Part shown: one piece after another, positions 5,219-24,588 of the stretch
Numbering within the stretch: position 1 is the first letter of the stretch
How the letters are laid out: each line of letters opens with the position of its first letter
IMG/VR virus record: IMGVR_UViG_3300030012_004117
Coordinates: 1-24,588 of that record
Strand: one strand, 5' to 3'
Origin: a virus
Taxonomy: Duplodnaviria; Caudoviricetes
Length of the DNA stretch: 24,588 bases
Notes under the pieces: model-generated
Database searches by the model: none
What the model saw: only the letters and a program-made list of their open reading frames with translations
What the model was told of the DNA's origin: nothing
Program-made: the position numbers and the translations under genes

Positions 5219-5223
5219 AAGAC

Positions 5224-6743: not shown

Positions 6744-7874
6744 ATGGAAGACGATTTTTATAATAGGAATATTGCTGTTTTAAAAGGCAATAACTTTGGT
6801 CTTGGGAGCGGATCTCTTGAAAACCAACGGAGGTTTGAGGAATACTATTCTAGTGCTATAGATCCTATTCGTAAATCTATTAAGGACACTGAGGAAAGAA
6901 GAATGCAAGCCGAGAGGAGTCGGCAAATTCTTGAAGCAGAAAAAGAGCGTTTAAGAAAGGAATCAGCAGAGGCAGAAGCGAAGAAAGCGGCTCAAGAAAA
7001 AGTAGATAAGGCTTTCGGTGCGTTGGGGGTAATTCAACAGATAAAAGACCCAGAAGAAAGACGAGAGGCTTTCGATAAATACGAATCTAGTTTGACTATT
7101 GCGGACCGCCAAGACTCAAAAATCAAAGCGGCTCTTACTATGACTGAACAGGGGATTAAGGAATACGAAAAAGAAATAAAAGATCAGCAAAAGGATAAAG
7201 ACTCTTCAATGGAGGCGAGGGCAAATCTCCTAATTAGTAAGGGAAAATTAAAACAAGCCAGAGAATTGGCTAGTGAAATTTCAGACCCAGTGAAGAGGGA
7301 CACGGTGTTATCGACTGTAGTAGATAACAGACCAAGCTCAACTGCTGATCTTAAAGAGGACTTTAGCAATTTGACGAAAACGGCGACATCTGCTTTGTCG
7401 GAACTTTCTAAAATTACACCTAGCTCAATTTCTCCAGAACCCGAAGCTGGTCCAACTGAAGAGGTAAAAGTGATCACCGAGGCTCCAGAAGTCTCGGAGG
7501 AGGGAGACTCGCAGGAGTCTTTTATTTTTGATGAGGAGGTGGCTTCGGGGGGTTCCACTAAAAGTTCCAATCAACAAATATATCGAGCCGCTAGGAACGC
7601 TTACTTTACATTGTTTGGAGCCGAAGAAGCGGATAAGTTGTTCAAGGATGATCCAGATAACATGACCCCCAAAGAACTCAGCGACTTGTTTGATACGGCT
7701 ACTAAAAAGGTGGCGGAGATTAAAAGAAAGTCCCGAACAAACAAAAAATTCTTTAAACAGTTTGTTGCTGGCGAAGGTGTATTAGATTCCTCAAAGGAGG
7801 TTAAAAAGTCAAAATCACCCTCAACTCCCGAAGGTAATCAAACTTTTGGTGGGTCGGAATTTTATGGGATATAA
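6744..7874 (+). CDS. coiled-coil putative ejection/internal virion protein
   Basis: 376-aa E/K-rich helical ORF directly upstream of the giant protein. This matches the usual position of podovirus ejection proteins (inference). Confidence 0.7.
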   Translation: MEDDFYNRNIAVLKGNNFGLGSGSLENQRRFEEYYSSAIDPIRKSIKDTEERRMQAERSRQILEAEKERLRKESAEAEAKKAAQEKVDKAFGALGVIQQIKDPEERREAFDKYESSLTIADRQDSKIKAALTMTEQGIKEYEKEIKDQQKDKDSSMEARANLLISKGKLKQARELASEISDPVKRDTVLSTVVDNRPSSTADLKEDFSNLTKTATSALSELSKITPSSISPEPEAGPTEEVKVITEAPEVSEEGDSQESFIFDEEVASGGSTKSSNQQIYRAARNAYFTLFGAEEADKLFKDDPDNMTPKELSDLFDTATKKVAEIKRKSRTNKKFFKQFVAGEGVLDSSKEVKKSKSPSTPEGNQTFGGSEFYGI

Positions 7875-7896
7875 ACAAGTTTTCAGTTAACTGTCA

Positions 7897-7925
7897 TTGC
7901 AGAAAGAGGCAGCGTAGTGTAGTAT
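7897..7925 (+). promoter_or_regulatory. putative sigma70-type promoter for the giant gene
   Basis: TTGCAG (7897-7902)-N17-TAGTAT (7920-7925), 27 nt upstream of ATG 7953. Confidence 0.5.
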
Positions 7926-7952
7926 TAACGGATACTACTTACATACGTTGTC

Positions 7953-10900: not shown

Positions 10901-13900
10901 TAGTGGGTCGCCACTTACGGCCGAGGTGGTAGCTAACATTCTTACCTCTCCTGCTAGGGGTAAAGATTTCGATGGTAGAACACGCGCTGAAGTAGAGGAG
11001 TTGATTGCGAAAGGTGAACTCACTATGGAAGATGCAGTTCGCATGGGACTCGCACAGCCTACCCCAGAGCCTAGCCCTACCCCAGAGCCTGTCACTGGAA
11101 CGGAACCTACAACGGAGGCAGAGCCAACACCGGAAGCAGAGCCTAGTCCAGATCCAACACCGGAAGCAGAGCCTAGCCCAGATCCAGCACCAGAAGCAGA
11201 GCCTACTCCTACCTCAGAGAAGGAGGTTGACACACCAATCAAAATTACTTTTGATCGTGTGGAAACAGATTCGGTTAAAGAAACAGTTGAAGAGTTTTTT
11301 GATTCGGATCAAAATTCTGATCAACAAGCCGCTGCGGACCCAAGCACACTGAGTTCTCCAGAAGTCACGCCAGATCCAAGGCTTGAACCCCTCTCCGCTG
11401 ATGAAGAAGTAGACCGAGTTGTAGCCCAAGTAGACGAGACAGTATTCCCGAAAGAGACTCAAGCCCCGAAAGACCCCAAGGTCAGGGAGCAAGCTCAAGC
11501 GGTGAGCGATGAGGTTAGCAGAATAAACCAATCAGGCGGTAAGGTTGTGTTCGTTAAAGACGCAGAAGAAGCCGATAGAGTTCTGAGGAAAGCTAGGGGA
11601 GGCAAGGGAATCCGCCAAGATCAAAAAGCTAAACTTAGTAAAGAGAGTTCCTTCCAAGCAAACGTAGATGGATCTCCGGTTACTTTTGTTTTCGAGTCAA
11701 AGCTAAAGAACAAAACCACTTCCGCTCTTCGGAAGATTCTTAAAAAGGCATCCCGCGACACTCAGGTTAGCAAGTTGATCGGTCGAGATTCTGTTGTCCT
11801 CCCTAGTAATCAGACAGTCAAAAAGCTGAAGATCAAGGACTTCGATAGCCTTACTGATTCTGAGAAAGTATCATCGGTTTTGGATTGGCTTGACTCAGAC
11901 CCCCAAAACAATTTGGACCCCCAATCCGACAAGGAGTTTATCACTTACCTTCGGAAACTATCCGGCAAAGCTCAAGTTAGTGCCACTCCTGTTACGGCCA
12001 ATGCCGTATCAAGCGTTGTATCCTCCAAGGTGGGAAGCCCCATCATGCCTCCTGCATCCGAGTCCCCAGTCTTAAATACTGAACAAAAGCTGGAGTCAGG
12101 TCGCACTAAACGGGTCTTCAATAAAGCCTCTATTGAAGAGACTGCGAAGCAGTTCAAAGGAGAGGACGTAGAGGCGTTTAAGATCTTCATGAGTGTCTTA
12201 GAGAAGTCATTGGAACAACTCCCTTCTACGGTCACTCTGGTCATAGGTAAGAGTAGATTCGCGGCTTCTGCTAACAGGAGGACTGGAGAAGTATCAATTG
12301 ATCCCGTTGCTTTGTTTGAGCAGTTTAAGGGCAATAGAGACTTAGACTTTTCTAATCCTTCCCATCAAAAATATGTTTCCGCTTCTTTACAGAGGATAGT
12401 TGTCGAAGAGTTCGCACACATAGCGTCCTTTAATTCTATCCCTCAGAACGTGTTCGATGAGGTCGTTAACGGGATGTCTGACTCTGACTACGAGTATGTG
12501 ATTAGCACCTATTTCAAATTCGACAAAAAAGGCGCAGCAAAGGCGAGATCCGATCTAAAAAGCGGTGACCCAGAGACAGTTAAGAGACAGAAAGAATACT
12601 TGGTTGAAGAGTTCTTACGCCAGCAATATCAGGATAAGGAAGCGGGGTTCACGACAGAGGACTCTTATCTACTTCTGAAGGGCGAGAAGAGAAAGCCTGT
12701 TCGTGATCTTGTTATCGCATACTTAAAGGGTATGTATCGCCGGATCACCAAGAAGACTAGGAACGGTCGCTTTTTGTCAGGCCCAGAGAGGGCGGCAGTT
12801 GCTAGGATCACAGATGAGATCAATACGTTGCGGATGGATTTCAATACCCCGCTCCCATACGGCTACACATTTGATGACTCTCCCCAAGGGGCTGCTGCCG
12901 ACATCGAAGCCCTCAGTCAAATGTTCCCTCCACAGGAGCCTAGCGCATTAGGTATGCCCCAAATGTCTGAGGAATCTATTCCATTTGTTGATCAGCCTAA
13001 GATTCTCTCCAACACACCTGTTGTTCCAGGTCGGCGAGTAGCAACCGCTCCCCCAACCGCAACAGGTAAAAGGCGACCGTTCACAGAACTTGAGCGAGCA
13101 GCAAGCGGGATGGATGTCTTATTCTCCAACTATCGCCTACAACGCTCTTACGTCCCAAACGCAACGGCGATATCACAATACGAAATCTTAGGGCAAGCAG
13201 GGCGTGACTTATTAGAAAAATTAAATCGTGCTGACGATGCGGAGAAGCAAGGAGTAGCAGATGAAATTCATCAAGCTCTGATCACTAAGATCACTGACAA
13301 CTTGCTTCACTTGCACGATGAAATGAATCCTACCGTCAGAGAGCGAGCAAGGCTCTGGTATGAGGGGGCCAATCGTGTCGCAAGGGATTTAGCTGCAACT
13401 TACAACATTTCTCCTGAGCAAGCCGCCGCCGCTATTGCTGTGCTTTCTCCTCAAAACGATTGGTTCCAAAACGTATCCTTGGCAAGCCGCACACTTGATA
13501 TTTTGTATAACCAAGGGCAAACCGTTTTCGACAAAAAGCTCATGGAAAAATACGCTGCGCTCGAAAGCAGTCAGCAGAAAAAGTCTGGAGTATCGGCCAA
13601 GCAGCACGAAATAGATATGGAGAATAGGCGCAAGGAAGCGCGTCTTTATGCTAATAAGCATCTCTTAGGTAAGAAGCTAGATGACCTAAGCGATGACGAT
13701 GCTGCAATTTTTGTGCGAGCCTATGATCAGGAATACAACCCTAGAGGTTATGCCGTTATTACTCCAGAAGGCAATCGCATTGAGCCGAAGGCTAATAAAG
13801 AAGGCACTGCTTTGCTAAGTGTCGGTTGGGGTAGTTACGCCGAAATTTCAAAAGCTGTCACAATGTATCGGTCAGATGATTTTGTGACACTTAGTCAAAC

Positions 13901-16900
13901 TGTTGGGGGAGCGCACAAAGTTAGAAACTTTTATAACAACATAATCGATCCGACTAATTCAAAAGACGTAACGATTGATACTCACGCAGTAGCCGCAGGG
14001 TTGCTGTTACCTGTTGCTGGAGCCGACAGCGAAGTTTCCCACAATTTTGGTACGAACAACAAGGGTGACACGCGCAGGATCAGCAATGAGGGCCGCGCAA
14101 AATATGGGCATAACGGAACTTATGCTATTTTTGCTGAAGCATACCGAAGAGCAGGGGCAGCAAGAAATTTGAAGGCTAGGGAAATGCAGTCCATTACATG
14201 GGAGCAAGTAAGAACCTTGTTTGAAGCAGATCAGAAGAACAATAATGTCCTTGTGGAGTCTAGAGAATTATGGTATGATTCCGCTGATGATAAAAGCGCA
14301 AGAGCATCTGTCGAGAAAAAATTTGGAGGTTATGGCCTCCCAGATTGGGCCACACCAAGTCGGCGCGAGGATGGTGCTGAAGCGTTACCCCAACAAACCC
14401 AAGATCAACGTGCGGGATTGGCAGATGTCTACGGGGATGGACTTGGAGAGTCCAGAGAATCTCCCAGCGGAATTACGCTTATCGATCCCAGACGAACTGC
14501 TGCCGAGGGAGCTACTACCAGACGAAGTTTAGACGACCAAGGCGCACCCCGAATCTCTGATGAGGATGCCCTCGACGATGCCATCTACATGGACTCCGTT
14601 GACCGGAACGACTATGAGATGGCCGAAGAAGCCTTGGAACGAGTCGCTGCTAGGTATGGGGTAGAGAACCCTGAGCTAGTTGTCCGCGACAAAGACGGCG
14701 ACATCCTGACTCCCGCACAACGATTCATGATTCCTCCAACGGTGATCTCGCCACAGAAGATCGCTCGCCATAAAGAACTTGAAGCGAAACATGATGCAGG
14801 AACCATCACGCCGGAAGAGACTGCCGAGGCAGAACGTATCGTAGCGGAAGCTGCAAAGGCTGCGGGGTTTGATTCGCCAAAAGTTTATCATGGGACAAAC
14901 GAAGACTTCGATACCTTCAGCAAAGAAAAGCTAGGTTCAAAAAATATCTTTGCAGAATCCGCCCGTGAGGGATTCTTCCTAGCGGGGTCTTCAACAACAG
15001 CAGAAAATTACATGGGATTAACTTCCCTTGATTTTGCAGGTCTTTCGATTTCGCAAGACCCCCTATTAGCCGAAGCTAGGGTAAAATTCCGAGACGAACT
15101 CGATGAGGTTGGACGAAAAGAAAAAGAAGTTTTAGGATCTCTCGACAAGGAGCTACTAAATAATCCCAACACCAAACAGCTTACAGAGATTTTTGGAGAG
15201 GCTTTCGAGGAAAACCGTCTGAGGAAGATGAATATTTTATCTGAAGTAGTGTTTGGTAAACCATATGGCACTAAGCAAGGAGAAATATTGGAGGAGAGCG
15301 GCGTGAATGCGATGCGCGACGAGGTTAACGCTAGAATAAACAAATTTATAGAGCAGGAGTATTTAAATCGCAGTGGAAAAACGCCTCAAATTAAAGAGTT
15401 ATTCACCAAGATGGGGAACCCCTATATAATAGATGCGGGAGATACAGTGGCGGGGGCTGAATTTCCTCTCACCAACCACATCCAAGACGCTAAAACACTA
15501 GGCCATGATGGAGTTATTTTTAAGAATATATCTGATGGAGGAGGGCCAGACACAGTTTATGTCGCATTTGAGCCTAACCAAATCAAATCCGCTGACCCCT
15601 TCACCGGAGTCCCGATTGATGAGCGTTTTGACAGGGATCAGGATTCGATTCTTTATTCAGCTAGGTTCTTGGATGATATCGAGGGTGGTGATGATATATC
15701 GGCAACGCCGGAATTTGATATACGCCCCCTACTTCAAACGCTTGAGATGCCGCTGGTTCACACCAGAAAAGAGTTCGGACTGTTCCGCAGGATCATTGCG
15801 AAACTCACTGGGACTAACCTGCCCAGTCAGAGAGACATCATGGGCGATGAGGGCGGTTGGACTGCCTTCTCCAAAGCTATAATAAATGGCGACTTTCCAG
15901 ACGAGCGCATCAGGAACATGATCATCGGCAACGGGCGGTTTGTTCCCTCCGTAGAGAGTCTTTTGAATCGCCTCCACATTACAATGGAGGACATCATCAA
16001 AAAGAAATACAAAGGTAATTTGCCAGCGGATGTTAGGAAAGACTTCAATACCGCCATTGGAACGGAAGACATCGTGGTTGATAGTGTCAAGAAAGGGCGC
16101 ATAGATGCCCAACACAAGGCTGACATCGCACTAATCAATAGCGGCGATCCTAATTCGTATCGCCAGATGACTCAAGAAGAGGCCGATACCCTAATCCAAA
16201 CGGCTAGAGAAGAAAACCCAACAGCAACAAATCAAGAGATTGGAGTCATCGCGGGGAACTTGTATCGCAAAAAACTATTCAAAGAAGCTGAGAATAAGCA
16301 AAAGGAAGCGACAGACAAGCTACTGCAAGAATCAGCTAGGCAAGAAAAGATAAAGGTTGTCCAAGCACTCAAAAGACTTGAAGACCGAGGAGAAAACGAC
16401 CTTGTACAAATTGTTGTCGAGCTACGGCAAATGATCTCTGATATTTCTAATTACTTTGGTGAAGAAGGAGCGGACGCATTAAATAAAGAACTCAAACTAG
16501 CTTTCGATGTGTCCAATGGTTTCTACTTGTCACGCCGCTACAGGTTCTTCAATGACCCTACTTATAAGTCGAACCTGATTGAATTGATCCGAGGTGGGGA
16601 AAAAGTAAAGGGAAGTAAGCGGAAGGTTGCCGAACTCAATGAGCGAATCGAAAATGCTATCCCAGAATTTATAGGCATTGCGCGGCTTGAGATCCAGAAA
16701 AAGCTATTAGAAACAAAACTAAGAGAGGCTCAAAAAAGAGGCGAAGTAATATCCCAAGAAAAGAGTAAACAGATTACAGAATCCAAAGAGTTTCAACGAG
16801 AGGTCGATCAAGAATTAGGTGACCCCGAAACAGCAGCTAAGGAGGCAATGATTGAATACCTAGCGGAGTTTGGAGATGCTAGAGATTACGAGACTGCTTC

Positions 16901-19289
16901 CAACGGAGCCAAAACAATTCATGACGCACTCAAGCAAAAGAAAAACTTGACCCCAGGTATCAAGAAACTCCTTGGTCAATATGAGTCTGATGCGGACGCT
17001 ATCACTGGAATCAGGGTTATGCTTCAAACCATTCAGACCCAGACTCATATGCTTGCCAGCATCATGAAGCTCAAAAACCTTGTAGACCTAGATAATCGTT
17101 TGCGAGAGGATGCCGAAGCTGCCGGAGAGAAATATAATCCATTTATCTTGTCGGATGATGAGCATCGTAACTTAAACGCACTAGACAAAAAGAGTTATGA
17201 GGAACTGGAAGGCAGTATTCCTGACTCCAATCCATTAAAAGGTAAGTTTATCAGGAAGGACATAAAGGCAGCACTTGAGGTTTCTAAAGACCCCATTGAT
17301 ATGAATCGGGCAAACGAAACCGCTAAGGGTTTTGCTAGAGCCGTGTCCGCCGTTGGAGTCCTTAATGGTTTAACCCTGATGGGAGTGACCACCTTCTCAG
17401 GGTTGGCCTTCCACTTCAGAAACTCTATCTCCACTGTGTTCAGAGCTATTAGAGCGGGAGCTTTCTTGAAACCCGCTTATGCGACCAAAATACTTGTTAG
17501 AGCCATCGCGGAAGCTGCGGTCGCTTTTCCAGGGGTGAATGAGAAATACCGATACGTTCCTGATTGGATTAACCGTTTAGCCAGAGGTGAGCGGGTTTCA
17601 CTAGAGTCGCTCATGGTGGAACACGCCAAACTAGAAGGACTCAGCGTTGTTAATCAGAGCGTGAGGTCTGCCGTGTATAAAGACCTCTTCGGTCTGAGAA
17701 AATCAGAACCTAGTTTTATAGCGGACATGGACAAACTAGAGTCTCTAAACCCCGCTTCTAGGGCATATAGAAAACTCTCTAAGAAGGTATTAGACTACTC
17801 ATTAAAACTTACGAACGCCTCCGACAACGCTTTCCGAATCGCTACCTATTACAATAACGTAGACCTTCTGAAAAAGGCTAGGGCCAAGGGAGATGGGTCG
17901 TCGTTCCGAGGGATTCCAATTACGGAGATGTCAGACTACGACATCGAAAGGGAGGCTGCTAGGATGATGAATAAGATCACTCCAGGCGAGGACTACCTTG
18001 TCCAAGCTGGTAAAACTCTAGCGGAGTCCCCTCTGAGGGTTGTCATATCGTCGTTCGCTAGATTCAAGTTTGAGACAATGCGGACATACGTTAACTACCA
18101 CACAGAAGTCGGTGAACTTTTGAATTCAAGCAATCCCGTTATGAGAGCGGAGGGGGTCAAGAGATTAGCTGGAGTCATTGCGATGTATGGGATCTCTTTT
18201 GGGCCAACCAGTTATTTATTGAGTAAACTCTTAGGTGGACTGGAAGAGGAAGAACAAGATGCCTTGGACGAGGGCAACCCCAGCTTCTACAAACGCGCCC
18301 AGATGCTCAGAAAACTCAACCGATCCACTGGGGAAATAACGGACTACAACTTTACATATATGGATGAAATGGCTTTCTTGGGAGATCCCTTTAGTTATGC
18401 CCTACAAGAAATCCGCCAAGACAAATTAGGCCCGATGGGTGCGGTTTCTGGATTCTTGGGGGCAATCGCGTTCGGTGAGATATTGGATCAGCAAGTTCTG
18501 TCTCAAGTCATCCATGAAGTTATCTACACCAACAGGGATGCCAAGGGTAAAAAGATTGTCGAAGACAATGACACAGGTGAAGACCGTATTTATAAGCCAA
18601 TACTTTATGCTCTAAAAAGGCTTGCCCCTGCATATGTCCGAGGAAGCGTAGAAGGTAAGCAAGCCTTTGAATCTGCTCAAGGAACATATTCTGAGAAGAT
18701 GGAGGCGGCAGCGAAAGCCCTCTTTAATAGAGCAGTTCTACCTACCAAGCCTTTCACTAGACCCGTATCCGAAAGATATCTTTCCATCCTTTACAAGTAT
18801 AACAGGTTTAAGCGAATTGCCGGTGAGCATAAATCCGATGCCATGTCAGAGAATATCTATGTTGGCTCAACTTCCCGTAGGCCAACGGACGAAGAAGTAA
18901 GGGAGTTTGTCAACAATTACTACGAGGGACTCATTCAAGTCTATGACATGACCGATAAATTAACTAAGCAGTTCTTTAAAATGGGAATGTCTCCAGAAGA
19001 AATAGCAGTTTCACTCAGTTCTAGCGGACTTATGAGCAAGAAAGATATCGCTAATTATCTTAGAGGAAGCACCCGTAGTCAGTTGGTGACTAGGACTTTC
19101 TCTTTACCTTTACCTACTTCTGGAAAAGCAGGGGACGAAGGGAAGCTGAGAAAGTTCGATGATGTGGGCGATGCGAACCGCCGTTATCGTTTCATGCTAG
19201 AGGCTAGGAGAAGATATACCACTGAAGGATTTGAAGATGGAACATACGTTCCACAAACCTACAACCCAACCAATGAAGATGAAGAATAA
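7953..19289 (+). CDS. giant (3778 aa) polyvalent internal virion/ejection protein with zincin-like, HhH-glycosylase-like and ADP-ribosyltransferase domains
   Basis: Uninterrupted ORF. Gly/Ala-rich hydrophobic helices in the N-terminal third; P/E/T linker; IVVEEFAH...EYLVEE; WY..A...LSPQ.DW..N...HKV.NFY.NI...VTIDTHA...Y..A..AY.RA...QSITW; YHGT...GFF.....A..Y...GHDGVIF...YVAFEPNQIKS; C-terminal helical region (FHFRN, DN.FRIA.Y, F..F..E..R) resembling large polyvalent/ejection proteins. Confidence 0.85.
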   Translation: MADTKFPSPSPESSDDDQEKKDLTGSLPEDSELEPTEETDPEEEEEKKPEKFPAPAAIEPIPDFLSWKRGRTELDFAVTEGLNDTEREVVEAHSDRLRYINFDKLQKLGRGEYQGEATEKEYQNAYNQFASSFRVDAPEGVEFSEEKVQAAIQAATIEVGADATNNRLSLIEGLDDKSIKFLAQQGAEGFDLDNPSRTKITASALNNYSPSDEFQEQALQKGVDNLLSGLREKTLNQVAVRSNLIPFASVPFFEGGEEVGETVDVSPRALKQFDSPSEAVKFSIENGHIKPDQALTAYTLATEKEEDLDLSLAEIVRSQQLSSYVNNSLPTIKNKDPLLNSLRRAANDPDNQEVKEDFYEAFAGSLNSADVEGGGFKIDPEDKSFRALADDYIFQRSSQDLPESFKDEGDLSSNVRKDPLTGQITIHKATIFRPDIFEKSLEDAGLSEEDKETLRARRKVIFNTPSFQYSDGVRNALKFLRNDEGQSFEEYLEVRNESVDTDAFDKYSEELWEKRSEKIRSGEMSREEAQFFFPETEAKSFGDLFDEFLQEAKVDKGVIYGLSMLEEAVLSATEYYAYSVPLLAEQAAALVSPRMAEKIRETKAYKGSEERSVALVKKNMAQREAMETFGYKPGMLFDVAGAASGVGGQIVADILLTRGAGTLGKLSGKVGSKVGSKVGLPTLKGAKELAQMKILSKIADDAALKKINAAKGAARSKAYKEAIAKKLRPGTATRAIPGIMSRTYLAGYSRNYGASLNEIQNSPEGQDMTLDQQREFAADAAGFQTGFEAALTAGFAKGGFDVVESSILRGISPKGLKKYLSKDLGKIDNKKFSALVGTSVKELEKELGVARGKIPTLLLGAVSEGIEEGLPSGASIVFEDFLMSYLDYNELNEDVPILRIFDKYLEFGKYLASGQVDSDLIKEAYETGKYDFLIGAILGGGVSGVRSVGSGLGSMVAPSRDSREAAMQASQLLYEKISDKLSDSGSPLTAEVVANILTSPARGKDFDGRTRAEVEELIAKGELTMEDAVRMGLAQPTPEPSPTPEPVTGTEPTTEAEPTPEAEPSPDPTPEAEPSPDPAPEAEPTPTSEKEVDTPIKITFDRVETDSVKETVEEFFDSDQNSDQQAAADPSTLSSPEVTPDPRLEPLSADEEVDRVVAQVDETVFPKETQAPKDPKVREQAQAVSDEVSRINQSGGKVVFVKDAEEADRVLRKARGGKGIRQDQKAKLSKESSFQANVDGSPVTFVFESKLKNKTTSALRKILKKASRDTQVSKLIGRDSVVLPSNQTVKKLKIKDFDSLTDSEKVSSVLDWLDSDPQNNLDPQSDKEFITYLRKLSGKAQVSATPVTANAVSSVVSSKVGSPIMPPASESPVLNTEQKLESGRTKRVFNKASIEETAKQFKGEDVEAFKIFMSVLEKSLEQLPSTVTLVIGKSRFAASANRRTGEVSIDPVALFEQFKGNRDLDFSNPSHQKYVSASLQRIVVEEFAHIASFNSIPQNVFDEVVNGMSDSDYEYVISTYFKFDKKGAAKARSDLKSGDPETVKRQKEYLVEEFLRQQYQDKEAGFTTEDSYLLLKGEKRKPVRDLVIAYLKGMYRRITKKTRNGRFLSGPERAAVARITDEINTLRMDFNTPLPYGYTFDDSPQGAAADIEALSQMFPPQEPSALGMPQMSEESIPFVDQPKILSNTPVVPGRRVATAPPTATGKRRPFTELERAASGMDVLFSNYRLQRSYVPNATAISQYEILGQAGRDLLEKLNRADDAEKQGVADEIHQALITKITDNLLHLHDEMNPTVRERARLWYEGANRVARDLAATYNISPEQAAAAIAVLSPQNDWFQNVSLASRTLDILYNQGQTVFDKKLMEKYAALESSQQKKSGVSAKQHEIDMENRRKEARLYANKHLLGKKLDDLSDDDAAIFVRAYDQEYNPRGYAVITPEGNRIEPKANKEGTALLSVGWGSYAEISKAVTMYRSDDFVTLSQTVGGAHKVRNFYNNIIDPTNSKDVTIDTHAVAAGLLLPVAGADSEVSHNFGTNNKGDTRRISNEGRAKYGHNGTYAIFAEAYRRAGAARNLKAREMQSITWEQVRTLFEADQKNNNVLVESRELWYDSADDKSARASVEKKFGGYGLPDWATPSRREDGAEALPQQTQDQRAGLADVYGDGLGESRESPSGITLIDPRRTAAEGATTRRSLDDQGAPRISDEDALDDAIYMDSVDRNDYEMAEEALERVAARYGVENPELVVRDKDGDILTPAQRFMIPPTVISPQKIARHKELEAKHDAGTITPEETAEAERIVAEAAKAAGFDSPKVYHGTNEDFDTFSKEKLGSKNIFAESAREGFFLAGSSTTAENYMGLTSLDFAGLSISQDPLLAEARVKFRDELDEVGRKEKEVLGSLDKELLNNPNTKQLTEIFGEAFEENRLRKMNILSEVVFGKPYGTKQGEILEESGVNAMRDEVNARINKFIEQEYLNRSGKTPQIKELFTKMGNPYIIDAGDTVAGAEFPLTNHIQDAKTLGHDGVIFKNISDGGGPDTVYVAFEPNQIKSADPFTGVPIDERFDRDQDSILYSARFLDDIEGGDDISATPEFDIRPLLQTLEMPLVHTRKEFGLFRRIIAKLTGTNLPSQRDIMGDEGGWTAFSKAIINGDFPDERIRNMIIGNGRFVPSVESLLNRLHITMEDIIKKKYKGNLPADVRKDFNTAIGTEDIVVDSVKKGRIDAQHKADIALINSGDPNSYRQMTQEEADTLIQTAREENPTATNQEIGVIAGNLYRKKLFKEAENKQKEATDKLLQESARQEKIKVVQALKRLEDRGENDLVQIVVELRQMISDISNYFGEEGADALNKELKLAFDVSNGFYLSRRYRFFNDPTYKSNLIELIRGGEKVKGSKRKVAELNERIENAIPEFIGIARLEIQKKLLETKLREAQKRGEVISQEKSKQITESKEFQREVDQELGDPETAAKEAMIEYLAEFGDARDYETASNGAKTIHDALKQKKNLTPGIKKLLGQYESDADAITGIRVMLQTIQTQTHMLASIMKLKNLVDLDNRLREDAEAAGEKYNPFILSDDEHRNLNALDKKSYEELEGSIPDSNPLKGKFIRKDIKAALEVSKDPIDMNRANETAKGFARAVSAVGVLNGLTLMGVTTFSGLAFHFRNSISTVFRAIRAGAFLKPAYATKILVRAIAEAAVAFPGVNEKYRYVPDWINRLARGERVSLESLMVEHAKLEGLSVVNQSVRSAVYKDLFGLRKSEPSFIADMDKLESLNPASRAYRKLSKKVLDYSLKLTNASDNAFRIATYYNNVDLLKKARAKGDGSSFRGIPITEMSDYDIEREAARMMNKITPGEDYLVQAGKTLAESPLRVVISSFARFKFETMRTYVNYHTEVGELLNSSNPVMRAEGVKRLAGVIAMYGISFGPTSYLLSKLLGGLEEEEQDALDEGNPSFYKRAQMLRKLNRSTGEITDYNFTYMDEMAFLGDPFSYALQEIRQDKLGPMGAVSGFLGAIAFGEILDQQVLSQVIHEVIYTNRDAKGKKIVEDNDTGEDRIYKPILYALKRLAPAYVRGSVEGKQAFESAQGTYSEKMEAAAKALFNRAVLPTKPFTRPVSERYLSILYKYNRFKRIAGEHKSDAMSENIYVGSTSRRPTDEEVREFVNNYYEGLIQVYDMTDKLTKQFFKMGMSPEEIAVSLSSSGLMSKKDIANYLRGSTRSQLVTRTFSLPLPTSGKAGDEGKLRKFDDVGDANRRYRFMLEARRRYTTEGFEDGTYVPQTYNPTNEDEE
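11057..11213 (+). repeat. Pro/Glu/Thr linker with 30-bp tandem repeats (PTPEAEPSPD x about 3)
   Basis: ccaacaccggaagcagagcctag(t/c)ccagat at 11124 and 11154, with a degenerate third copy at 11184 and shorter PTPEP units upstream. Confidence 0.9.
12230..12760 (+). other. zincin-like metallopeptidase (MPTase-PolyVal-like) domain within the giant protein, non-canonical EExxH
   Basis: A beta-rich lead-in (VTLVIG...AASAN...GEVSIDP), then IVVEEFAH (EEFAH at 12405-12419) and a downstream EYLVEE helix. Domain limits are approximate. Confidence 0.5.
13290..14230 (+). other. HhH DNA-glycosylase-superfamily-like (DUF7178-like) domain within the giant protein
   Basis: LWYEGA, IAVLSPQNDWFQN, GAHKVRNFYNNI, VTIDTHA (13968-13988; resembles the vDTH catalytic Asp motif of EndoIII/MutY), AEAYRRA, MQSITW. 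Domain limits are approximate. Confidence 0.65.
14820..15659 (+). other. ART-PolyVal-type ADP-ribosyltransferase domain with a helical insert
   Basis: AAKAAGF..KVYHGT (YHGT from 14886)..FDTF..GFFLA....A..Y, then an insert of about 120 aa, then MGNP...GHDGVIFKN....YVAFEPNQIKSADP...ERF....ILYS. Confidence 0.8.
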
Positions 19290-19461
19290 GAAGTTCAAGC
19301 CCCACATGATGTATGATAAGTCCGGTAAAGGCTTCAAGGCCAACACCTACAAACAACACCTAGCTATGAAGGAAAAAGGATACGGTCACTCAAAGCCCAG
19401 CAGTAAAGCCAAGACTGCAAAGCGAGTGAAGAAGCTGATTCAAAAGAAGTCCGGCTACTAG
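19279..19461 (+). CDS. small basic phage protein (about 60 aa)
   Basis: MKNKKFKPHMMYDKSGKGFKANTYKQHLAMKEKGYGH..., a motif I recall from aquatic phages. ATG 19279 (or 19273) overlaps the stop of the giant gene. Confidence 0.75.
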   Translation: MKNKKFKPHMMYDKSGKGFKANTYKQHLAMKEKGYGHSKPSSKAKTAKRVKKLIQKKSGY

Positions 19462-19721
19462 ACTGGAGTCTTAGTCATCCTCAGAATGGTCTTCTCAATC
19501 GAGGAGAATACTTCCTCGTAACCATCGCTAGCGGGATCAGTTACCGCTGCTGCGAGGGATCGCGTAAACGATTCACGGCAAGAGGGTAGGTCGATTACTG
19601 CTCCCCGAACACTTGTCTTTGTGCCGTGAACAAACGCAAGGGCTGCCCAGTTGCCATTCTCTGGGCGAGCTAGGATCTCGACGGTGTTTCCGCCGAGATC
19701 CAAAAATTCTTTCTGGTTCAT
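19458..19721 (-). CDS. hypothetical protein
   Basis: 87-aa ATG-start ORF with globular composition. Its stop overlaps the convergent gene's stop in CTAG (19458-19461). Confidence 0.6.
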   Translation of the reverse strand: MNQKEFLDLGGNTVEILARPENGNWAALAFVHGTKTSVRGAVIDLPSCRESFTRSLAAAVTDPASDGYEEVFSSIEKTILRMTKTPV

Positions 19722-19787
19722 CGGTCACACTCGTATATCAGACGGAGTATTGCAACCAGCACTATCAAGTTAATAATAAGATACATT

Positions 19788-20258
19788 TCACTTCCTCCTA
19801 ACTCCTAAGATTTTAGATTTGTAAAACGATAGCTGCGTTTTACACACTGCACGACTCTGGGTAGGACGGTGAATGCACTCGCCATTCCCGATATAGATCA
19901 GGACATGACCCGCACTACCTGATCGACTACCCCGCCACGTTACTACAATATCGCCTGGGCGGATTGCCATGACCGGAACGGGTCGACCCCACTCCAACCA
20001 GTTTCTCGCCATCGCATGATGCGAGGGTGTGCTGCCCCCCGATTCGTTAATGACTTGTCCCACCCAGTTAGCGCACTGGCATGAGTCGCCGTAGCGGTAG
20101 TGTCGACCCGCCCATTCCTTTGCCGTTTCGACAATTGAGGAGGAGGTGAACTGACCCGCTATGAGCGGACGAAACTTTCTCTTCTCTTGTCCTCTGGCAC
20201 TAGCCATGAAAACAGCTAGGCCCGACAAGAGAATAACAATGTATATGAACTTTTTCAT
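19788..20258 (-). CDS. NlpC/P60-family cell-wall peptidase with N-terminal signal peptide
   Basis: MKK + hydrophobic stretch + ASA; A..W.G..Y.YG...QCANWV (Cys), ARNWL.WG, RPGDIVV, GHV.IY.GNG..IH (His, His). Confidence 0.88.
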   Translation of the reverse strand: MKKFIYIVILLSGLAVFMASARGQEKRKFRPLIAGQFTSSSIVETAKEWAGRHYRYGDSCQCANWVGQVINESGGSTPSHHAMARNWLEWGRPVPVMAIRPGDIVVTWRGSRSGSAGHVLIYIGNGECIHRPTQSRAVCKTQLSFYKSKILGVRRK

Positions 20259-20569
20259 TTTTTCGGAACACCCAAGTGGGTCTTAGCGTATTGGTGAACT
20301 CCCTGCTTCGTCATTCCCATCAGGTCTGCTATCTGCTGGTAAGTCATTTTCTTCCGCCTGAGTCGCCGGATTTCATCCAGCTTGTTTGGTTGTCTTGGGC
20401 CGCTCTTCTGACCCTTCCGGCGACCAGGTTTTCGGATAGCTCCCGCTTTGACAAGTCGTTTTCTTAGGGTCGCGTAGCAGCAATCATAGTCTTTCGCCAT
20501 GTCTTGAAGCCGTTCTCCTCGCTGGTAGCGAGCGATGACTTGGGGTAGTGGTAGTATTACTCTCTTCAT
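20255..20569 (-). CDS. double-HTH DNA-binding protein
   Basis: YQRGERLQDMAKDYDCCYATLRKRL and LRRKKMTYQQIADLMGMTKQGVHQY. ATGA overlap with the NlpC/P60 gene. Confidence 0.8.
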   Translation of the reverse strand: MKRVILPLPQVIARYQRGERLQDMAKDYDCCYATLRKRLVKAGAIRKPGRRKGQKSGPRQPNKLDEIRRLRRKKMTYQQIADLMGMTKQGVHQYAKTHLGVPKK

Positions 20570-20570
20570 A

Positions 20571-20777
20571 TCAGTGGTTTTTTAAAGCATTACTCAAACG
20601 GATCTCAACATCTGCTAGAGTTGGTTGGATTTTATCTGCCATGGCAGTGCATCCGTTGACAAAGCCAAGCCGGAAAGCGGCTTCCTCAACAGGTTTGAAT
20701 TCAACTCCGATTATCTCGTAGTTTTTTCTAAGTTTATCGAGCGCGTCTTCGTATCGCTCATCTAGGTATTTACTCAT
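20571..20777 (-). CDS. hypothetical protein
   Basis: 68-aa ORF, tightly packed in the minus-strand operon. Confidence 0.65.
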   Translation of the reverse strand: MSKYLDERYEDALDKLRKNYEIIGVEFKPVEEAAFRLGFVNGCTAMADKIQPTLADVEIRLSNALKNH

Positions 20778-20796
20778 TTTATTTTTGGGTTACAAA

Positions 20797-21006
20797 TTAT
20801 ATCAAGCCCTCCTCAATCATTTCTTTAACGGAAGGCAAACTCTCAGCGTAGCTAGATAGATCACTTATTATTTCATCGAGGATTTCTCTATAGTGACGCT
20901 TGTCATCAGATCGACTGTGAAAATCGACCACTACATTTATCTCTCTCTTGATCATCTTATTCAACACTCCAGAGTAGGTTAGATCATTTAATTTATATTC
21001 TTTCAT
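20797..21006 (-). CDS. hypothetical protein
   Basis: 69-aa ORF, tightly packed in the minus-strand operon. Confidence 0.65.
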   Translation of the reverse strand: MKEYKLNDLTYSGVLNKMIKREINVVVDFHSRSDDKRHYREILDEIISDLSSYAESLPSVKEMIEEGLI

Positions 21007-21011
21007 ACGTT

Positions 21012-21035
21012 TTACAGGTTACAGGTTACAGGTTA
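21012..21035. repeat. 7-bp tandem repeat (TTACAGG)x3 + TTA
   Basis: ttacaggttacaggttacaggtta fills the intergenic gap between the TAGT stop and the next ATG. Confidence 0.9.
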
Positions 21036-21037
21036 AA

Positions 21038-21892
21038 TTAGTTCTTTTTATCAAGGGTGGTTTTTACCATTCCGTAGTCATCCCGACCCTTTGGAATATC
21101 AACGCCCTCAACCAACTTCAGTAGATTCTTCTTAAAGGGTTTATAGTCTACGTGGTGATGCCACCTACCAAACTTCTTAGTCACTCTTGCTATGTCTGGG
21201 TGCTGATCCACAAGTGACTGCGCGAACTCCAGTCTATTGTCAGTTTCCGCATACACAGTGTCAGTATTCCCGCCGCCCATACGCATAGATGCAACCTTCC
21301 CGCACAGGAAAGCATTGAACAACACGGTACATTCACCTGATTTGAGAACCCTCAACGACAAATCAGTGTCCTCGTTATACTTGCCTCGCCACCGGAAGGG
21401 TAGGTTGTTGCGAACAAGGATACACGAATATATTCTCGTGTTAATATAGTATGGTGGTATGGGTTGTGTTGCCTTGCAGAATGAGTAATAGTTCATGCCG
21501 GATAGACCAACATTATCAAACCGATCAGTGAAGTCCTCAGATGCCCTAAATGTAGCATTGCATCTCACCTCTAATTTGTCGTTCATGTGAAGTCGATTAA
21601 ACGCCTCTATATTGTCATCTAGAATCCAGTGTCTTTTGTGTCCCCCTGTGACGCTGTGATCCCAGACCCAATTACGGACGGGTATAGACCCGAATCCTTT
21701 TTGTGAGAAGTCTGAAGGCAGAACTAAGACATCTGAATTCACCCACTGATTTCGTTGATATGCCTCCGCCTCAGAAGGCTCCACAACTACCTTGAATGGG
21801 ACGCTGCACCTCCTGAGTGACCTAGCGGTAATGCAGGAGTTAGGGCGACCCTTAGATATAACGTAAACAGGATATCTTATTTCTTTTGCCAT
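21038..21892 (-). CDS. TET-associated/GREB1-like (TAGT) GT-A glycosyltransferase, putative DNA base glycosylation
   Basis: YPVYVISKGR, VVVEPSE...Y, RNWVWDHS...HWILDDNI (DxD-like), NTRIYSCIL, RWRGKYNEDTDLSLRVLK, GGNT..VY, GRWHHHVDY. Confidence 0.85.
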   Translation of the reverse strand: MAKEIRYPVYVISKGRPNSCITARSLRRCSVPFKVVVEPSEAEAYQRNQWVNSDVLVLPSDFSQKGFGSIPVRNWVWDHSVTGGHKRHWILDDNIEAFNRLHMNDKLEVRCNATFRASEDFTDRFDNVGLSGMNYYSFCKATQPIPPYYINTRIYSCILVRNNLPFRWRGKYNEDTDLSLRVLKSGECTVLFNAFLCGKVASMRMGGGNTDTVYAETDNRLEFAQSLVDQHPDIARVTKKFGRWHHHVDYKPFKKNLLKLVEGVDIPKGRDDYGMVKTTLDKKN

Positions 21893-22661
21893 ACGTTAGG
21901 ACGGTCATTCCAAAACCCCGTCTTTACTTTTTCATAGCCTGATTGTTTAAGGATATTAGCAAACATCCTACCCATCTTACTATGATGAATATACGAATCA
22001 AGAGGGATAACCTTAGAAGACCAGCGAAGGTTGTAGAAGTAATCAAAATGCCCAAATGATTTTGCATTAAAAGCATTAGCCATAACTATTACCTTTGGCT
22101 TGTTCACTTCTAAGATTTCAATTAGGTGATCGCCAGCGTGATAAATATGCTCAAAGTATTCACTAGCGAAGACTAAATCAACTGGCCCAGCTTCTTTGTG
22201 GTCAGGCAATACGTCTATGTGGCTAGCGCAAAAATCATACTGCTTAGTGCCTTTAAGATTAGTGCCAACCACCCTGCCACATCCTATATCCTCAAGTGCT
22301 TTAGTGGTAAGTCCCAAGCCGCACCCTAAGTCTAAACAGGTATCAACAGTAAGATTAAGAGGCCCCACCTTCTTTATATACTCTGATGAATATATTTTGT
22401 AACAGGCTAGTAGGTCGCAGAAATACCAATCATCGTCATATAACTTGTAAGCGGCATCCTCATAGTCCAAGGCTTCATACCATTTATTCCTCAAGTCTTC
22501 AGCCCACTTAGAGTAGCCTTTTCCGTTGTAGTGATTTAAGACATCCGTATACCTCTGCTTTGCAGATGTAATGTTTATAGAATACATCTCGCAGTATAAT
22601 TTAATCGCCTCTTCAATCTTCATCTCAATCAACTATAACGTAAACAGGATATCTTATTTCT
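21857..22661. mobile_element. 777-bp methyltransferase cassette bounded by a perfect 28-bp direct repeat
   Basis: TATAACGTAAACAGGATATCTTATTTCT at 21857-21884 and at 22634-22661, bracketing exactly one gene. The mobile interpretation is inference. Confidence 0.7.
21877..22623 (-). CDS. class I SAM-dependent methyltransferase
   Basis: Motif I CLDLGCGLGLTT and VDLVFASEYFEHI. ATG 22623 (MKIEEAI) is preferred. The stop TAA lies inside the 28-bp repeat. Confidence 0.85.
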   Translation of the reverse strand: MKIEEAIKLYCEMYSINITSAKQRYTDVLNHYNGKGYSKWAEDLRNKWYEALDYEDAAYKLYDDDWYFCDLLACYKIYSSEYIKKVGPLNLTVDTCLDLGCGLGLTTKALEDIGCGRVVGTNLKGTKQYDFCASHIDVLPDHKEAGPVDLVFASEYFEHIYHAGDHLIEILEVNKPKVIVMANAFNAKSFGHFDYFYNLRWSSKVIPLDSYIHHSKMGRMFANILKQSGYEKVKTGFWNDRPNVWQKK

Positions 22662-22669
22662 CTACCCAC
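22625..22669 (-). pseudogene. truncated duplicate of the TAGT N-terminus (MGREIRYPVYVIVD*)
   Basis: GTG at 22669 is in the same register as the TAGT ATG (offset 777). It encodes EIRYPVYVI, identical to TAGT residues 4-12, and stops (TGA) 1 nt before the methyltransferase ATG. Confidence 0.7.
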
Positions 22670-22881
22670 ATCTCCTTTACCTCCCTATGGTGAGGTTTAA
22701 ATGGATGCCACGAACTCTTGGTCTTAGCTGTTAACTTCTGACCTATTAGAGAGGCGAACTCATTCAAGTCTTCCTCTGATTCAAATCTAAATATTATCTT
22801 GGCGTAAGGCTCCTGCCTCTCCTGCTCAAACTCAGGCATCCCACCCCACAGATCCTCTTGATGTATTAAGTCCTGATCCAT
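22654..22881 (-). CDS. small conserved protein usually found just upstream of TAGT/GREB1-like genes
   Basis: WGGMPEFEQE...Y..I..RFESEEDL..FA.LIGQKLT.KTKS.W.P. ATG 22881 is preferred because a separate ORF occupies 22883-23059. Confidence 0.75.
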   Translation of the reverse strand: MDQDLIHQEDLWGGMPEFEQERQEPYAKIIFRFESEEDLNEFASLIGQKLTAKTKSSWHPFKPHHREVKEMWVEK

Positions 22882-22882
22882 T

Positions 22883-23059
22883 TTAATATCCCGCCCACGC
22901 TCTAAGGTTTTTGATTGTGGAGAATTCGATCCAAGCCCCGCGAGATACCCCGTGGCCTCCTGCTGGTTCACTGTTTAGGATAAACAGCTTTCCGTTGTTG
23001 AGGAACGCCTCGCGTCCCCAGTCGTGGGACATAGCCCAGTGTAGGTGTTGTTTATTCAT
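22883..23059 (-). CDS. small hypothetical phage protein (58 aa), below the ORF-track cutoff
   Basis: MNKQHLHWAMSHDWGREAFLNNGKLFILNSEPAGGHGVSRGAWIEFSTIKNLRAWAGY*. A-rich leader ...ACTAATC-ATG, and TAA-A-ATG coupling to the next gene. Confidence 0.75.
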   Translation of the reverse strand: MNKQHLHWAMSHDWGREAFLNNGKLFILNSEPAGGHGVSRGAWIEFSTIKNLRAWAGY

Positions 23060-23071
23060 GATTAGTTTTTT

Positions 23072-23431
23072 CTAAGCACACGGTGAGTCTGCTTTATTAA
23101 TTCCGCTCCACCACTGGGTGACAGTGGCTTGGTGTTCTTCACCTTCATTTCCAAGGTAGATCAGTTGGTGCTTGCACCCTTTCTTCAGCCAGCAAGGTGT
23201 GCTTGAAAAGAAAGGGTGTTCCCTGTCCAGATCTGGCGTGATCTCAAGCCTCCACTGGACATCTGGCCACTCTCCCCTGTCGAACTCGTCTGGTTCTAGA
23301 AGTTGTCGGGTGGACTGCCACCCGTCGAGGTCTACCGCAATCTTGGTTGGAGCGTGTATGGGGCGCGTGAATCGGCAACCCGATTCTGTTTGGAAGAACA
23401 ATTTGTTTTCGGTTTTATTTACCAGTTTCAT
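23072..23431 (-). CDS. hypothetical protein (Trp-rich)
   Basis: 119-aa ORF preceded by the AATCATTAATCAC leader motif. Confidence 0.7.
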   Translation of the reverse strand: MKLVNKTENKLFFQTESGCRFTRPIHAPTKIAVDLDGWQSTRQLLEPDEFDRGEWPDVQWRLEITPDLDREHPFFSSTPCWLKKGCKHQLIYLGNEGEEHQATVTQWWSGINKADSPCA

Positions 23432-23469
23432 GATTGATGATTAGTGATTAATGATTGAGGTTTTTTGGT

Positions 23470-23733
23470 TTAGGATAGATTATTTTTTGATTCCGTAAAA
23501 GGAATCGAATTCACCGCTGACTGTAGTGCCGCCTTTATCGTTTTTCCGCTGGCCGCCAAGCCGCCATTCTTATCATGGCAAACCCAACCTTGACCTTCCC
23601 TTTTAATTCTGAATAAAGGGAGTGAGGATTCATCCTTCAAATCGACAGCCCAGTATATACCCACCTCGATTTTCTGGATAAAAAAACGAGACGTTGTATC
23701 TGAGCCTGTTTGGATTTGTAATCTATTTCTCAT
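23470..23733 (-). CDS. hypothetical protein
   Basis: 87-aa ORF with a beta-rich small-protein pattern (W.C....G.....TIKAA). Confidence 0.7.
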   Translation of the reverse strand: MRNRLQIQTGSDTTSRFFIQKIEVGIYWAVDLKDESSLPLFRIKREGQGWVCHDKNGGLAASGKTIKAALQSAVNSIPFTESKNNLS

Positions 23734-23754
23734 TATATAAATAGTGTGGTTGTT

Positions 23755-23788
23755 GGTTTTGCTTTTGGTTTTGGTTTTGGTTTTGGTT
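23755..23788. repeat. 6-bp tandem repeat (GGTTTT) x about 5.7
   Basis: ggtttt gctttt ggtttt ggtttt ggtttt ggtt, intergenic and directly after the stop of 23787-24185. Confidence 0.9.
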
Positions 23789-24185
23789 ATGACTTGGCGA
23801 GCGTTACAAATTTCCCTTCTCCCCGCTTTTTAGCCCTCCTATACTCTTGCAGAATGAGTCCAGCTTTCAGCCTACGGGCCTCTTTTATTACGCGATCAAA
23901 CTGGGCAGTGCTTTCCCACTGAGACCACCCCTCTTCTGCTTCGTCATGGTCAGCAGACAAGATGCCCCTATGTTCGAGCGATCCGTAGAGCGTTCCAGTG
24001 TAGATTTTCAACCAGACCTTTTCACCCTCCGCTAACAGGCGATACTTCGTCCTCTCAGCCTCTGCTTCGGGGAATGGCTTGTAGTCATAGTGCCCTGTCC
24101 AGACGGTCAGGTTACCGAAGTCCTCCCGCTTGATTGAGGAGGGATCGCAGTGCCTTAGCTCCTCTGGAGTTTTAATCGTTTTCAT
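23787..24185 (-). CDS. hypothetical protein
   Basis: 132-aa ORF preceded by the repeated leader motif. Confidence 0.7.
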   Translation of the reverse strand: MKTIKTPEELRHCDPSSIKREDFGNLTVWTGHYDYKPFPEAEAERTKYRLLAEGEKVWLKIYTGTLYGSLEHRGILSADHDEAEEGWSQWESTAQFDRVIKEARRLKAGLILQEYRRAKKRGEGKFVTLAKS

Positions 24186-24206
24186 GATGTGTGATTAATG
24201 ATTATC

Positions 24207-24377
24207 TCATTTAGAAACGGTGTATTCCCACCCCATACCATTGCAGAGTGCCTCCCCCAGTTCTTGAGAATTGCACTTGGCGACCTCTTTTTCGTCGGGG
24301 TGATCGAGAACACTCGTATCAGGCGAGGTGATGACGATCCACTCGTTCTCTCGTGCTTTGTAAACGATCGCTTTCAT
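24207..24377 (-). CDS. small hypothetical protein (56 aa), below the ORF-track cutoff
   Basis: MKAIVYKARENEWIVITSPDTSVLDHPDEKEVAKCNSQELGEALCNGMGWEYTVSK*, preceded by the repeated leader motif. Confidence 0.7.
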   Translation of the reverse strand: MKAIVYKARENEWIVITSPDTSVLDHPDEKEVAKCNSQELGEALCNGMGWEYTVSK

Positions 24378-24400
24378 GATGTGTGGTTAATGATTAAGGA

Positions 24401-24588
24401 TTATGACACGTCCTCTTTTGCGAGGATGTAGATTTTGGAAAACGTATGGTGAGAGTCATCCACCACGATAATGAAATTTCGTTGGGGGTCGCCTTCGCGG
24501 AGGTCGGACACGATTGCGTCTACTCCATCGTGAGAGATAGTCTCAAAGAGGTAGGCATCAGGATGCCCGATAATGGATTCTTTATTCA
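24401..24588 (-). CDS. small hypothetical protein, start at or beyond the window edge
   Basis: Open frame NKESIIGHPDAYLFETISHDGVDAIVSDLREGDPQRNFIIVVDDSHHTFSKIYILAKEDVS*. The window ends on ..TG, consistent with an ATG at 24589. Confidence 0.6.
   Translation of the reverse strand, partial: NKESIIGHPDAYLFETISHDGVDAIVSDLREGDPQRNFIIVVDDSHHTFSKIYILAKEDVS

Follow-up and report, generated by a model that had tools for sequence, protein, structure and literature searches.

Probable capture of a methyltransferase gene from an unrelated phage, with duplication of 28 bp, in a glycosyltransferase module of a marine phage

The DNA analyzed here, referred to as the window, is the whole stretch of 24,588 nucleotides at positions 1 to 24,588 of the IMG/VR virus record IMGVR_UViG_3300030012_004117. 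It is a 24.6-kb piece of a marine phage with a terminase, a sliding clamp and a 3778-aa polyvalent protein. On its minus strand, a small gene, a methyltransferase gene and a TAGT-family glycosyltransferase gene follow one another, and the methyltransferase gene is bracketed by two copies of a direct repeat. The features at this locus are as follows.

22654..22881, minus strand: small gene, 75 aa, partner of TAGT; no Pfam family; homologous domain fused to ParB-N or TAGT elsewhere
22634..22661, minus strand: upstream repeat copy, likely the recipient phage's own TAGT start; includes the stop of the small gene
21877..22623, minus strand: class I S-adenosylmethionine-dependent methyltransferase, 248 aa (PF13489, E 3e-6); phage family found beside TAGT
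21857..21884, minus strand: downstream repeat copy, with the methyltransferase stop and TAGT codons 4-12
21038..21892, minus strand: TAGT-family GT-A glycosyltransferase, 284 aa, chimeric (PF20691, E 3e-46; phrog_842)

The initial annotation, made from the letters alone, had named both enzymes, and profile searches confirmed the names. The glycosyltransferase scored 158 bits against PF20691 (curated cut-off, 27.5), and its DD motif (D92-D93) was invariant in 38 rows; a search by sequence found no relative of TAGT with a solved structure. The methyltransferase carried the class I domain of PF13489 and was predicted to adopt a class I fold (predicted local distance difference test [pLDDT] score of 96), with motif I (DLGCGLG) intact and D98, G100 and G102 invariant in 36 rows. 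NCBIfam profiles matched none of 13 proteins. The reported lack of an integrase also held among the 25 window proteins scanned, in which neither an integrase family nor a recombinase or transposase gene was found; the methyltransferase unit itself consists of one gene.

The two repeat copies were identical over 28 bp and spaced 777 bp apart, exactly as described before. The 28-mer spans the last base of TAGT codon 3 through codon 12, and each copy indeed holds a TAA stop (of the small gene or of the methyltransferase) together with TAGT codons 4-12 in another frame. It was the longest exact direct repeat of the window (13-16 bases in 30 base shuffles), and it had no exact match in viral contigs, a set that perhaps excludes the window's nearest records. 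Loss of one repeat unit in silico left the small gene intact and an open TAGT frame of 284 codons from GTG 22669, so the deletion that had been proposed would be clean. The reported contrast in G+C content was correct for the sampled pieces (37.2% versus 50.0%) but smaller for the whole segments (39.4% versus 46.3%).

A scan of viral contigs with the methyltransferase returned two mutually identical loci, L001 and L002, at 99% identity, and a metagenome scan returned three loci, two of the window type and one (L254) of the type of L001 and L002, hereafter the donor type. Over window positions 21881-22639, 754 of 759 bases (99.3%) were identical to L001, L002 and L254, and the identification of this donor-type genome bears out the earlier claim of a recent add-on. 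No third context for the segment was found in the viral-contig, run or metagenome scans, in which only the donor type and the window type occurred. The methyltransferase had no match in GenBank phages, and prokaryote genomes yielded 12 distant methyltransferase loci (29-39% identity) that were spread over taxa and gave no host clue. The donor-type genome, G001, is 74 kb long, 84% complete, siphovirus-like and unrelated to the window phage. It carries portal, prohead protease, capsid and tape-measure genes; its terminase differs, and a search of G001 with the window terminase gave no match. The content that it has in common with the window was limited to the module, an NlpC/P60 gene and one gene of 69 aa, and apart from the segment there was no shared DNA above 86% identity (window 4589-24588). 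In G001 the order of genes is small gene, methyltransferase, TAGT, without a long repeat, and the small gene's own stop sits 1 base before the methyltransferase ATG. The following features were delimited by this comparison.

21881..22639, minus strand: putative donor-derived segment, 759 bp, 754/759 identical to L001/L002/L254
22634..22639, minus strand: 6-base microhomology GTTATA (coding strand), putative upstream crossover; donor identity begins exactly here, 0 bases further upstream
21881..21884, minus strand: 4 common bases AGAA (coding strand), likely return crossover, within a 26/28 homeologous stretch
22625..22669, minus strand: 14-codon stub, GTG start at 22669; TAGT codons 1-12 continued in frame by the final two codons and the stop of the donor small gene
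21653..21856, minus strand: TAGT codons 13-80, the "shoulder", a likely older exchange with the donor lineage

On the coding strand, donor identity starts at the final 6 bases of the repeat, GTTATA, and stops after its first 4 bases, AGAA. The same breakpoint at 22639 was present with donor-type contigs of runs X7 and X15, whose small-gene starts differ; run X7 held a donor-type methyltransferase and also pieces 99% like the window TAGT body (21199-21483). The donor TAGT start and the 28-mer agreed at 26 of 28 bases; at the two sites where they differ, each window copy bears the recipient letter, the switch from donor to recipient letters falling at 21880 and 21866. Since the donor lacks a long repeat, and since the shared DNA has its limits at the two extremities of the repeat, the repeat is likely a product of the event, contrary to the proposal that the cassette was inserted via the repeat. 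Nor can the add-on be called scarless, as had been suggested, since the stub and the repeat are themselves the scar. The stub had been described correctly as 14 codons ending 1 base before the methyltransferase ATG at 22623, except that its start is GTG, not ATG. A GGAGG motif lies 10 bases 5' of the stub GTG, and no such motif lies 5' of the methyltransferase ATG; judged from these letters, the stub would preserve translational coupling to the methyltransferase. Only 17 bases of the insert precede the methyltransferase ATG, and no promoter-like or terminator-like sites above shuffle level were found on the coding strand of the 759-bp insert and its ends. The small gene of G001 has a basic 22-residue tail (L001 3931-3999) that is absent from its homologues and is possibly an earlier capture scar; the methyltransferase frame is open across this tail and reads through it in P0076.

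The two parts of the TAGT gene showed different affinities. Codons 13-80 were 81% identical in nucleotides to G001 versus 50-56% to the TAGT genes of L005, L007, L008 and L009, and codons 81-240 were 67% identical to G001 versus 70-74% to the same four loci. The TAGT body grouped with L005, L007 and L009, unlike the shoulder, and the trees of the two parts conflicted (support 100/99 and 99/98). Approximately unbiased tests rejected the swapped groupings (p 0.0004 and 0.033), the groups having been named after the trees were seen. On the strength of these identities and the tree conflict, an earlier TAGT exchange with the G001 lineage likely made the landing site.

These observations are, in our judgment, probably explained by capture of the methyltransferase gene from an unrelated G001-type phage, with the repeat arising as a duplication from two offset crossovers and with an enzyme that is predicted to methylate the sugar added by TAGT. 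The setting would be a cell co-infected by the donor and recipient phages. The recipient strand would exit its own TAGT gene at codons 11-12 through the 6-base microhomology with the tail of the donor small gene, copy through the donor methyltransferase, and return into the recipient TAGT gene at codons 3-4, where the donor and recipient genes are 26/28 alike. The offset between exit and return would duplicate 28 bp, and the in-frame exit would create the stub that keeps the methyltransferase translationally coupled. The likeness of the landing site likely goes back to a previous exchange with the G001 lineage, which would have involved TAGT codons 1-80. With regard to recombinases, RecA was found in G001, and the Rad52-like family was unmatched in the window and in 34 scanned open reading frames (ORFs) of its relative G006, both genomes being incomplete. 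Several observations bear on the direction of transfer. In a quick tree, the donor allele P0075 had an end branch of 0 and the window allele one of 0.015; of three internal amino-acid differences, two look derived in the window and one is uninformative. The codon usage of the segment leans to G001 more than that of any of 17 window genes, which is weak evidence, and the donor type varies among samples and yet keeps the same flank (X7, X15).

We then considered what the enzyme might act on. Its fold matches tied among small-molecule O-/N-methyltransferases (best VIA, Z 13.3, root-mean-square deviation 3.0, 190 residues aligned), and its nearest Atlas clusters were viral. DNA base methyltransferases have a catalytic motif PC (C5) or (D/N/S)PP(Y/F/W) (N6/N4). 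Neither motif occurs in the protein, the strand-4 motif of which is FASEYFEH. In a survey of the best 80 of 269 viral loci of the family, which formed 45 clusters, TAGT lay within 4 kb in 38 clusters (37 by tblastn and 1 more by Pfam). The position of the methyltransferase varied: 13 had it between the small gene and TAGT, 8 had it after the pair and 7 before the pair. Other sugar-tailoring cargo comprised GT8, GT1 and FkbM genes. This cargo and the proximity to TAGT suggest methylation of the TAGT product, and we lean somewhat toward a tailoring O-methyltransferase for the TAGT glycan. No literature on this methyltransferase family or slot was found, subscription journals lying mostly outside the coverage.

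The acceptor of that glycan is most likely phage DNA, at about an even chance, and otherwise a virion protein or a host-surface glycan. The initial annotation had spoken outright of DNA modification; a DNA acceptor is what we infer, TET, C5-methyltransferase and ThyA-type genes not having been found near the family or in the donor. In favor of DNA, 5 of the 7 long homologues that were scanned carry the small domain in fusion with ParB-N, and a C5 DNA methyltransferase occupies the corresponding slot in a relative of the window phage. The model of the small protein was poor (pLDDT 76; predicted template modelling score 0.44), with no fold match and no useful sequence match in the PDB, and the Atlas gave unnamed viral clusters only; to judge from the fusions, the protein may be a ParB C-terminal dimerisation domain. 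The TAGT family (PF20691) includes the T6-type DNA glucosyltransferase, which is thought to add a second glucose onto glucosyl-hydroxymethylcytosine (PMC13390438), and ParB-like proteins activate phage thymine dioxygenases (PMC13229309). In a preprint on phage glycosyltransferases, about 65% of the contigs have no base-modification neighbour, a fraction that is left unexplained there (10.1101/2023.12.21.572611). Among scanned window proteins there was no TET/5mYOX or hydroxymethylase. TET, C5-methyltransferase and ThyA-type genes were likewise not found in 34 of 48 ORFs of G006 that were scanned, besides the slot gene, and a PF00145 search gave 0 of 5 records with a working control.

Empty sites and other cargo, which the initial annotation had proposed to look for in related phages, were found at the junction between small gene and TAGT. 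We fetched 160 loci (the best 80 of 476 and the best 80 of 99 matches); the small gene preceded TAGT in 131 of them, corresponding to 68 clusters, of which 49 were empty, 3 fused, 6 occupied by a member of this methyltransferase family and 10 by cargo of another kind. Three of these 10 (L024, L030, L031) are likely pairing artefacts, and the remaining 7 held a GT8 gene, a GT1 gene, a homing endonuclease and 4 unnamed genes (one unscanned). The small gene abutted TAGT without a methyltransferase in L005, L007, L008 and L009, and two clusters held both filled and empty states. In L138 (2381-3109), a GT8 gene (PF01501, E 2e-9) is flanked by an exact 12-bp duplication that takes in the stop of the small gene and the start of TAGT, and all 9 relatives compared, with 84-95% identity over TAGT, were empty. 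In the L113 group, a methyltransferase lies in an imperfect 9-bp duplication, and L104-L106 are empty. Duplication scars were seen at the junction in just a few, likely recent, cases. It is a doubtful but conceivable extension that unrelated phages repeatedly use this junction as an accretion slot, free of integrase, on a glycosylation module that is mobile and independent of TET. The loads would be sugar-tailoring enzymes (this methyltransferase family, GT8, GT1, FkbM), each leaving a duplication by which it could be shed, and the outcome would be a hitherto undescribed methylated sugar mark on phage DNA, diversifying against host nucleases. Exact gene-start repeats of 17, 15 and 13 bases were also seen around methyltransferase homologues in L233 (3853-4692), L219 (3953-4778) and L165 (1981-2786), respectively.

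Several points weigh against the capture of a sugar methyltransferase as set out above. A near-identical phage with the small gene and TAGT but no methyltransferase was not found in viral contigs, runs or metagenomes; the pre-insertion allele is thus one that we infer. G001 too may have received the gene recently, in which case the true donor or some intermediate is perhaps unsampled; the odd 22-residue tail of its small gene, and its relative G003, which has no methyltransferase, suggest that G001 may be one link in a transfer chain. Junction repeats of 25 cargo clusters measured 5-11 bases versus 4-11 at control gene starts (L138 not being the representative of its cluster in this comparison); since there was no excess, long duplications are the exception. 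With respect to function, the methyltransferase fold names no substrate, and TET, PF00145 and ThyA-type proteins numbered 0 among 149 neighbour proteins (146 of 172 non-redundant proteins plus 3 fusions) and were absent from the 63 of 71 G001 ORFs and the 80 of 86 ORFs of the complete G003 that were scanned.

Four other explanations were weighed. The same donor might have acted by another route, either a 777-bp circle formed via two GTTATA hexamers and joined by one crossover, or an unsampled intermediate that passed the repeat, the methyltransferase and TAGT codons 1-80 as a block. The donor does have GTTATA at both ends of the same 777-bp unit, gene mini-circles are described in T4-type phages (PMC2839356), and the 81% shoulder implies at least one further exchange with the G001 lineage. 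However, one crossover leaves donor letters in one copy, whereas both copies carry recipient letters, so the circle would need an extra repair or recombination step; the intermediate phage was not found in the viral-contig and metagenome scans. We regard these routes as unlikely. The reverse direction, in which the G001 lineage acquired the methyltransferase from the window's lineage, would fit the lack of the gene in G003 and the odd tail of the G001 small gene, but it appears very improbable, because the G001 breakpoint must then hit by chance the very hexamer with which the repeat of the window closes, the ancestral node is occupied by the donor allele, and the window's kin are without the entire module. 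An assembly chimera of two co-occurring phages, donor and recipient types of which can occur in one sample (X7), is scarcely credible. Both junctions, which the initial annotation had asked to see checked for an artefact, recurred across runs and in contig L253, which crosses both with 0 differences inside the module. The upstream junction was spanned in 4 of 6 phage-holding runs and the downstream junction in 3 of 6 (at least 31 bases on either side), X1, possibly the source of the window, being counted in both tallies; the window's five private bases were present in all recipient-type contigs. The six runs came from 5 samples of 2 studies in one year, possibly a single campaign. The comparison with runs covered 8 of the 21 listed and drew on those stretches of the window that run contigs cover.

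The initial annotation viewed the repeat as a switch, that is, a kept and selected device for deleting, re-inserting or amplifying the methyltransferase, with the modification being toggled accordingly within the population. Beyond the clean deletion in silico, it could be said for this view that 28 bp is at the 23-27 bp minimum for RecA/RecBC recombination and that a 113-bp repeat gives reversible loss of Salmonella wzy at about 1 in 500 (PMC12074656), and that, in two other phage groups, some relatives have the filled and others the empty allele. Nevertheless, a 777-bp deletion joint, circle or tandem copy was seen in none of the 6 runs, the data being contigs at depth 2.5-15, from which rare variants are dropped. 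X1 gave a single unbroken contig over 20500-22887 with no difference, though two strains diverge just upstream. The repeat was not conserved in the donor or in the family (longest common stretch of 6-17 bases in 79 of 80 loci, the value for the remaining locus being an artefact), and its origin is accounted for without selection for switching. A selected switch is consequently quite unlikely. Ordinary recombination at the repeat would possibly allow rare loss of the methyltransferase; a programmed switch is unsupported. Capture by two offset crossovers thus remains the reading that we prefer.

The module as a whole lies in a variable position of the genome, the boundaries of which are as follows.

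22883..23059, minus strand: gene of 58 aa that anchors the slot upstream; protein 88-91% identical in kin L356-L358, two alleles among runs
21037..22882, minus strand: whole small gene-methyltransferase-TAGT module, insert in the variable slot, absent at the syntenic place in G008, G010 and G016
21012..21036, no strand assigned: heptamer array TAACCTG (coding strand), which bounds the slot downstream; kin differ in copy number

Because the conserved 58-aa gene occupies 22883-23059, the gene upstream of the methyltransferase most likely starts at ATG 22881 (75 aa), a correction of its earlier start. The two alleles of the 58-aa gene region (window 22858-23075) differed by 21 substitutions and by an insertion of 3 bases, with which the small gene reaches 78 aa; both alleles were linked to the filled site. 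Close kin with 96-97% terminase identity had no TAGT in 5 records, 3 of which span the slot, nor in 1 further record, and a second kin set of 5 records (four of them more distant and near-complete) also had none. In G008 the 58-aa gene adjoins the heptamer array directly. G010 and G016 keep only a stretch that resembles the first codons of the small gene (L357/L358 3677-3700), which is either a remnant of a lost module or an insertion target. In G006 the slot holds a C5 DNA methyltransferase (PF00145, E 6e-33) before the heptamer array. The kin thus either have no module or have a C5 DNA methyltransferase at this place, indicating that window 21037-22882 fills a variable slot as a whole. The heptamer was present in about 3 copies in the window, 8 in G008, 5 in G006 and 2 in G010 (see also L349 1472-1527 and L351 1960-1994). 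In kin, the motif is found again between early genes, and it is perhaps a shuffling boundary. Elsewhere in the G006 genome there is a GT9 (heptosyltransferase-like) gene (L352 16256-17254).

The locus is probably a recent capture between unrelated phages with a legible scar, and it is a variant of known mosaicism rather than a new kind of element. Phage mosaics in which a homeologous shoulder is paired with an illegitimate junction have been described (Martinsohn 2008, PMC2327257; De Paepe 2014, PMC3945230), and the present locus likewise combines a 99.3% patch, an 81% flank and a short microhomology. Unlike those mosaics, the illegitimate junction here lies inside the recipient's own shoulder gene, so that 28 bp were duplicated; in addition, the head and terminase genes are unrelated and both breakpoints are legible to the base. 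Morons and the PeSL cassettes of T4-type phages (PMC2839356) similarly place one accessory gene between two conserved genes, with flanking repeats that could excise a mini-circle, but the repeat here is coding sequence with one occurrence and not a dispersed regulatory cassette. By the usual definition, a moron has its own promoter and terminator. The insert resembles a moron in that the gene is absent at the syntenic site in relatives (L005, L007, L008, L009), and it differs in having no promoter or terminator signal above shuffle level. As for the enzyme pair, TAGT resembles described members (PMC13390438; 10.1101/2023.12.21.572611) in being a GT-A enzyme with a strong PF20691 match and ParB-like and methyltransferase neighbours. 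It differs from TET-linked TAGTs (10.1101/2023.12.21.572611) in that TET, C5-methyltransferase and hydroxymethylase were not found beside TAGT or in the donor and kin as scanned, and in that it moves as a module of 2-3 genes. Salmonella wzy (PMC12074656) offers a parallel in that perfect direct repeats enclose a gene related to glycans; those repeats are 113 bp long, and excision, circle and reversion were measured, whereas here the repeat is 28 bp long and recent and no excised form was seen.

When genes pass between unrelated phages, the way in which they enter must usually be deduced from indistinct borders. In the present case, one can read off the donor type, the two breakpoints, an older exchange by which the landing site was likely made and, in kin, a slot without the module; a similar footprint was found at the same junction in two other phage groups. 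The three-gene module of small protein, TAGT and methyltransferase is common in phages, of expressible size and without the expected TET or hydroxymethyl-base partner, and its product is testable by an existing Escherichia coli reconstitution assay. If the acceptor is DNA, the module would represent a new way in which phage DNA becomes modified with sugars.

Other features were noted in the course of the analysis. N-terminal extensions of about 100-110 residues are present in the TAGT genes of Aeromonas phage Aeh1 and Vibrio phage 1.076.O (L255 3192-4391; L256 3677-4846; L233 4665-5918), and the extension of the L233 TAGT is the small domain. Aeh1 and 1.076.O are cultured phages with TAGT, the product of which is measurable; they and Aeromonas phage 65 carry a close TAGT at 43-52% identity. 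A ParB-N gene cluster and a PAPS-reductase/DUF3440 gene lie near the terminase in G001 (L243 13902-17904) and G003 (L248 13776-16273). The 3778-aa polyvalent protein of the window (7953-19289) has ART-PolyVal and DUF7178 domains and Pro/Glu-rich repeats, and is 77-81% identical in nucleotides among kin, with a variable middle. A 30-base repeat is present in three copies at the starts of small early genes (window 23421-23450, 24175-24204 and 24367-24396), and a near-perfect 21-bp inverted repeat 3' of the terminase gene (window 4101-4143) is likely a terminator.

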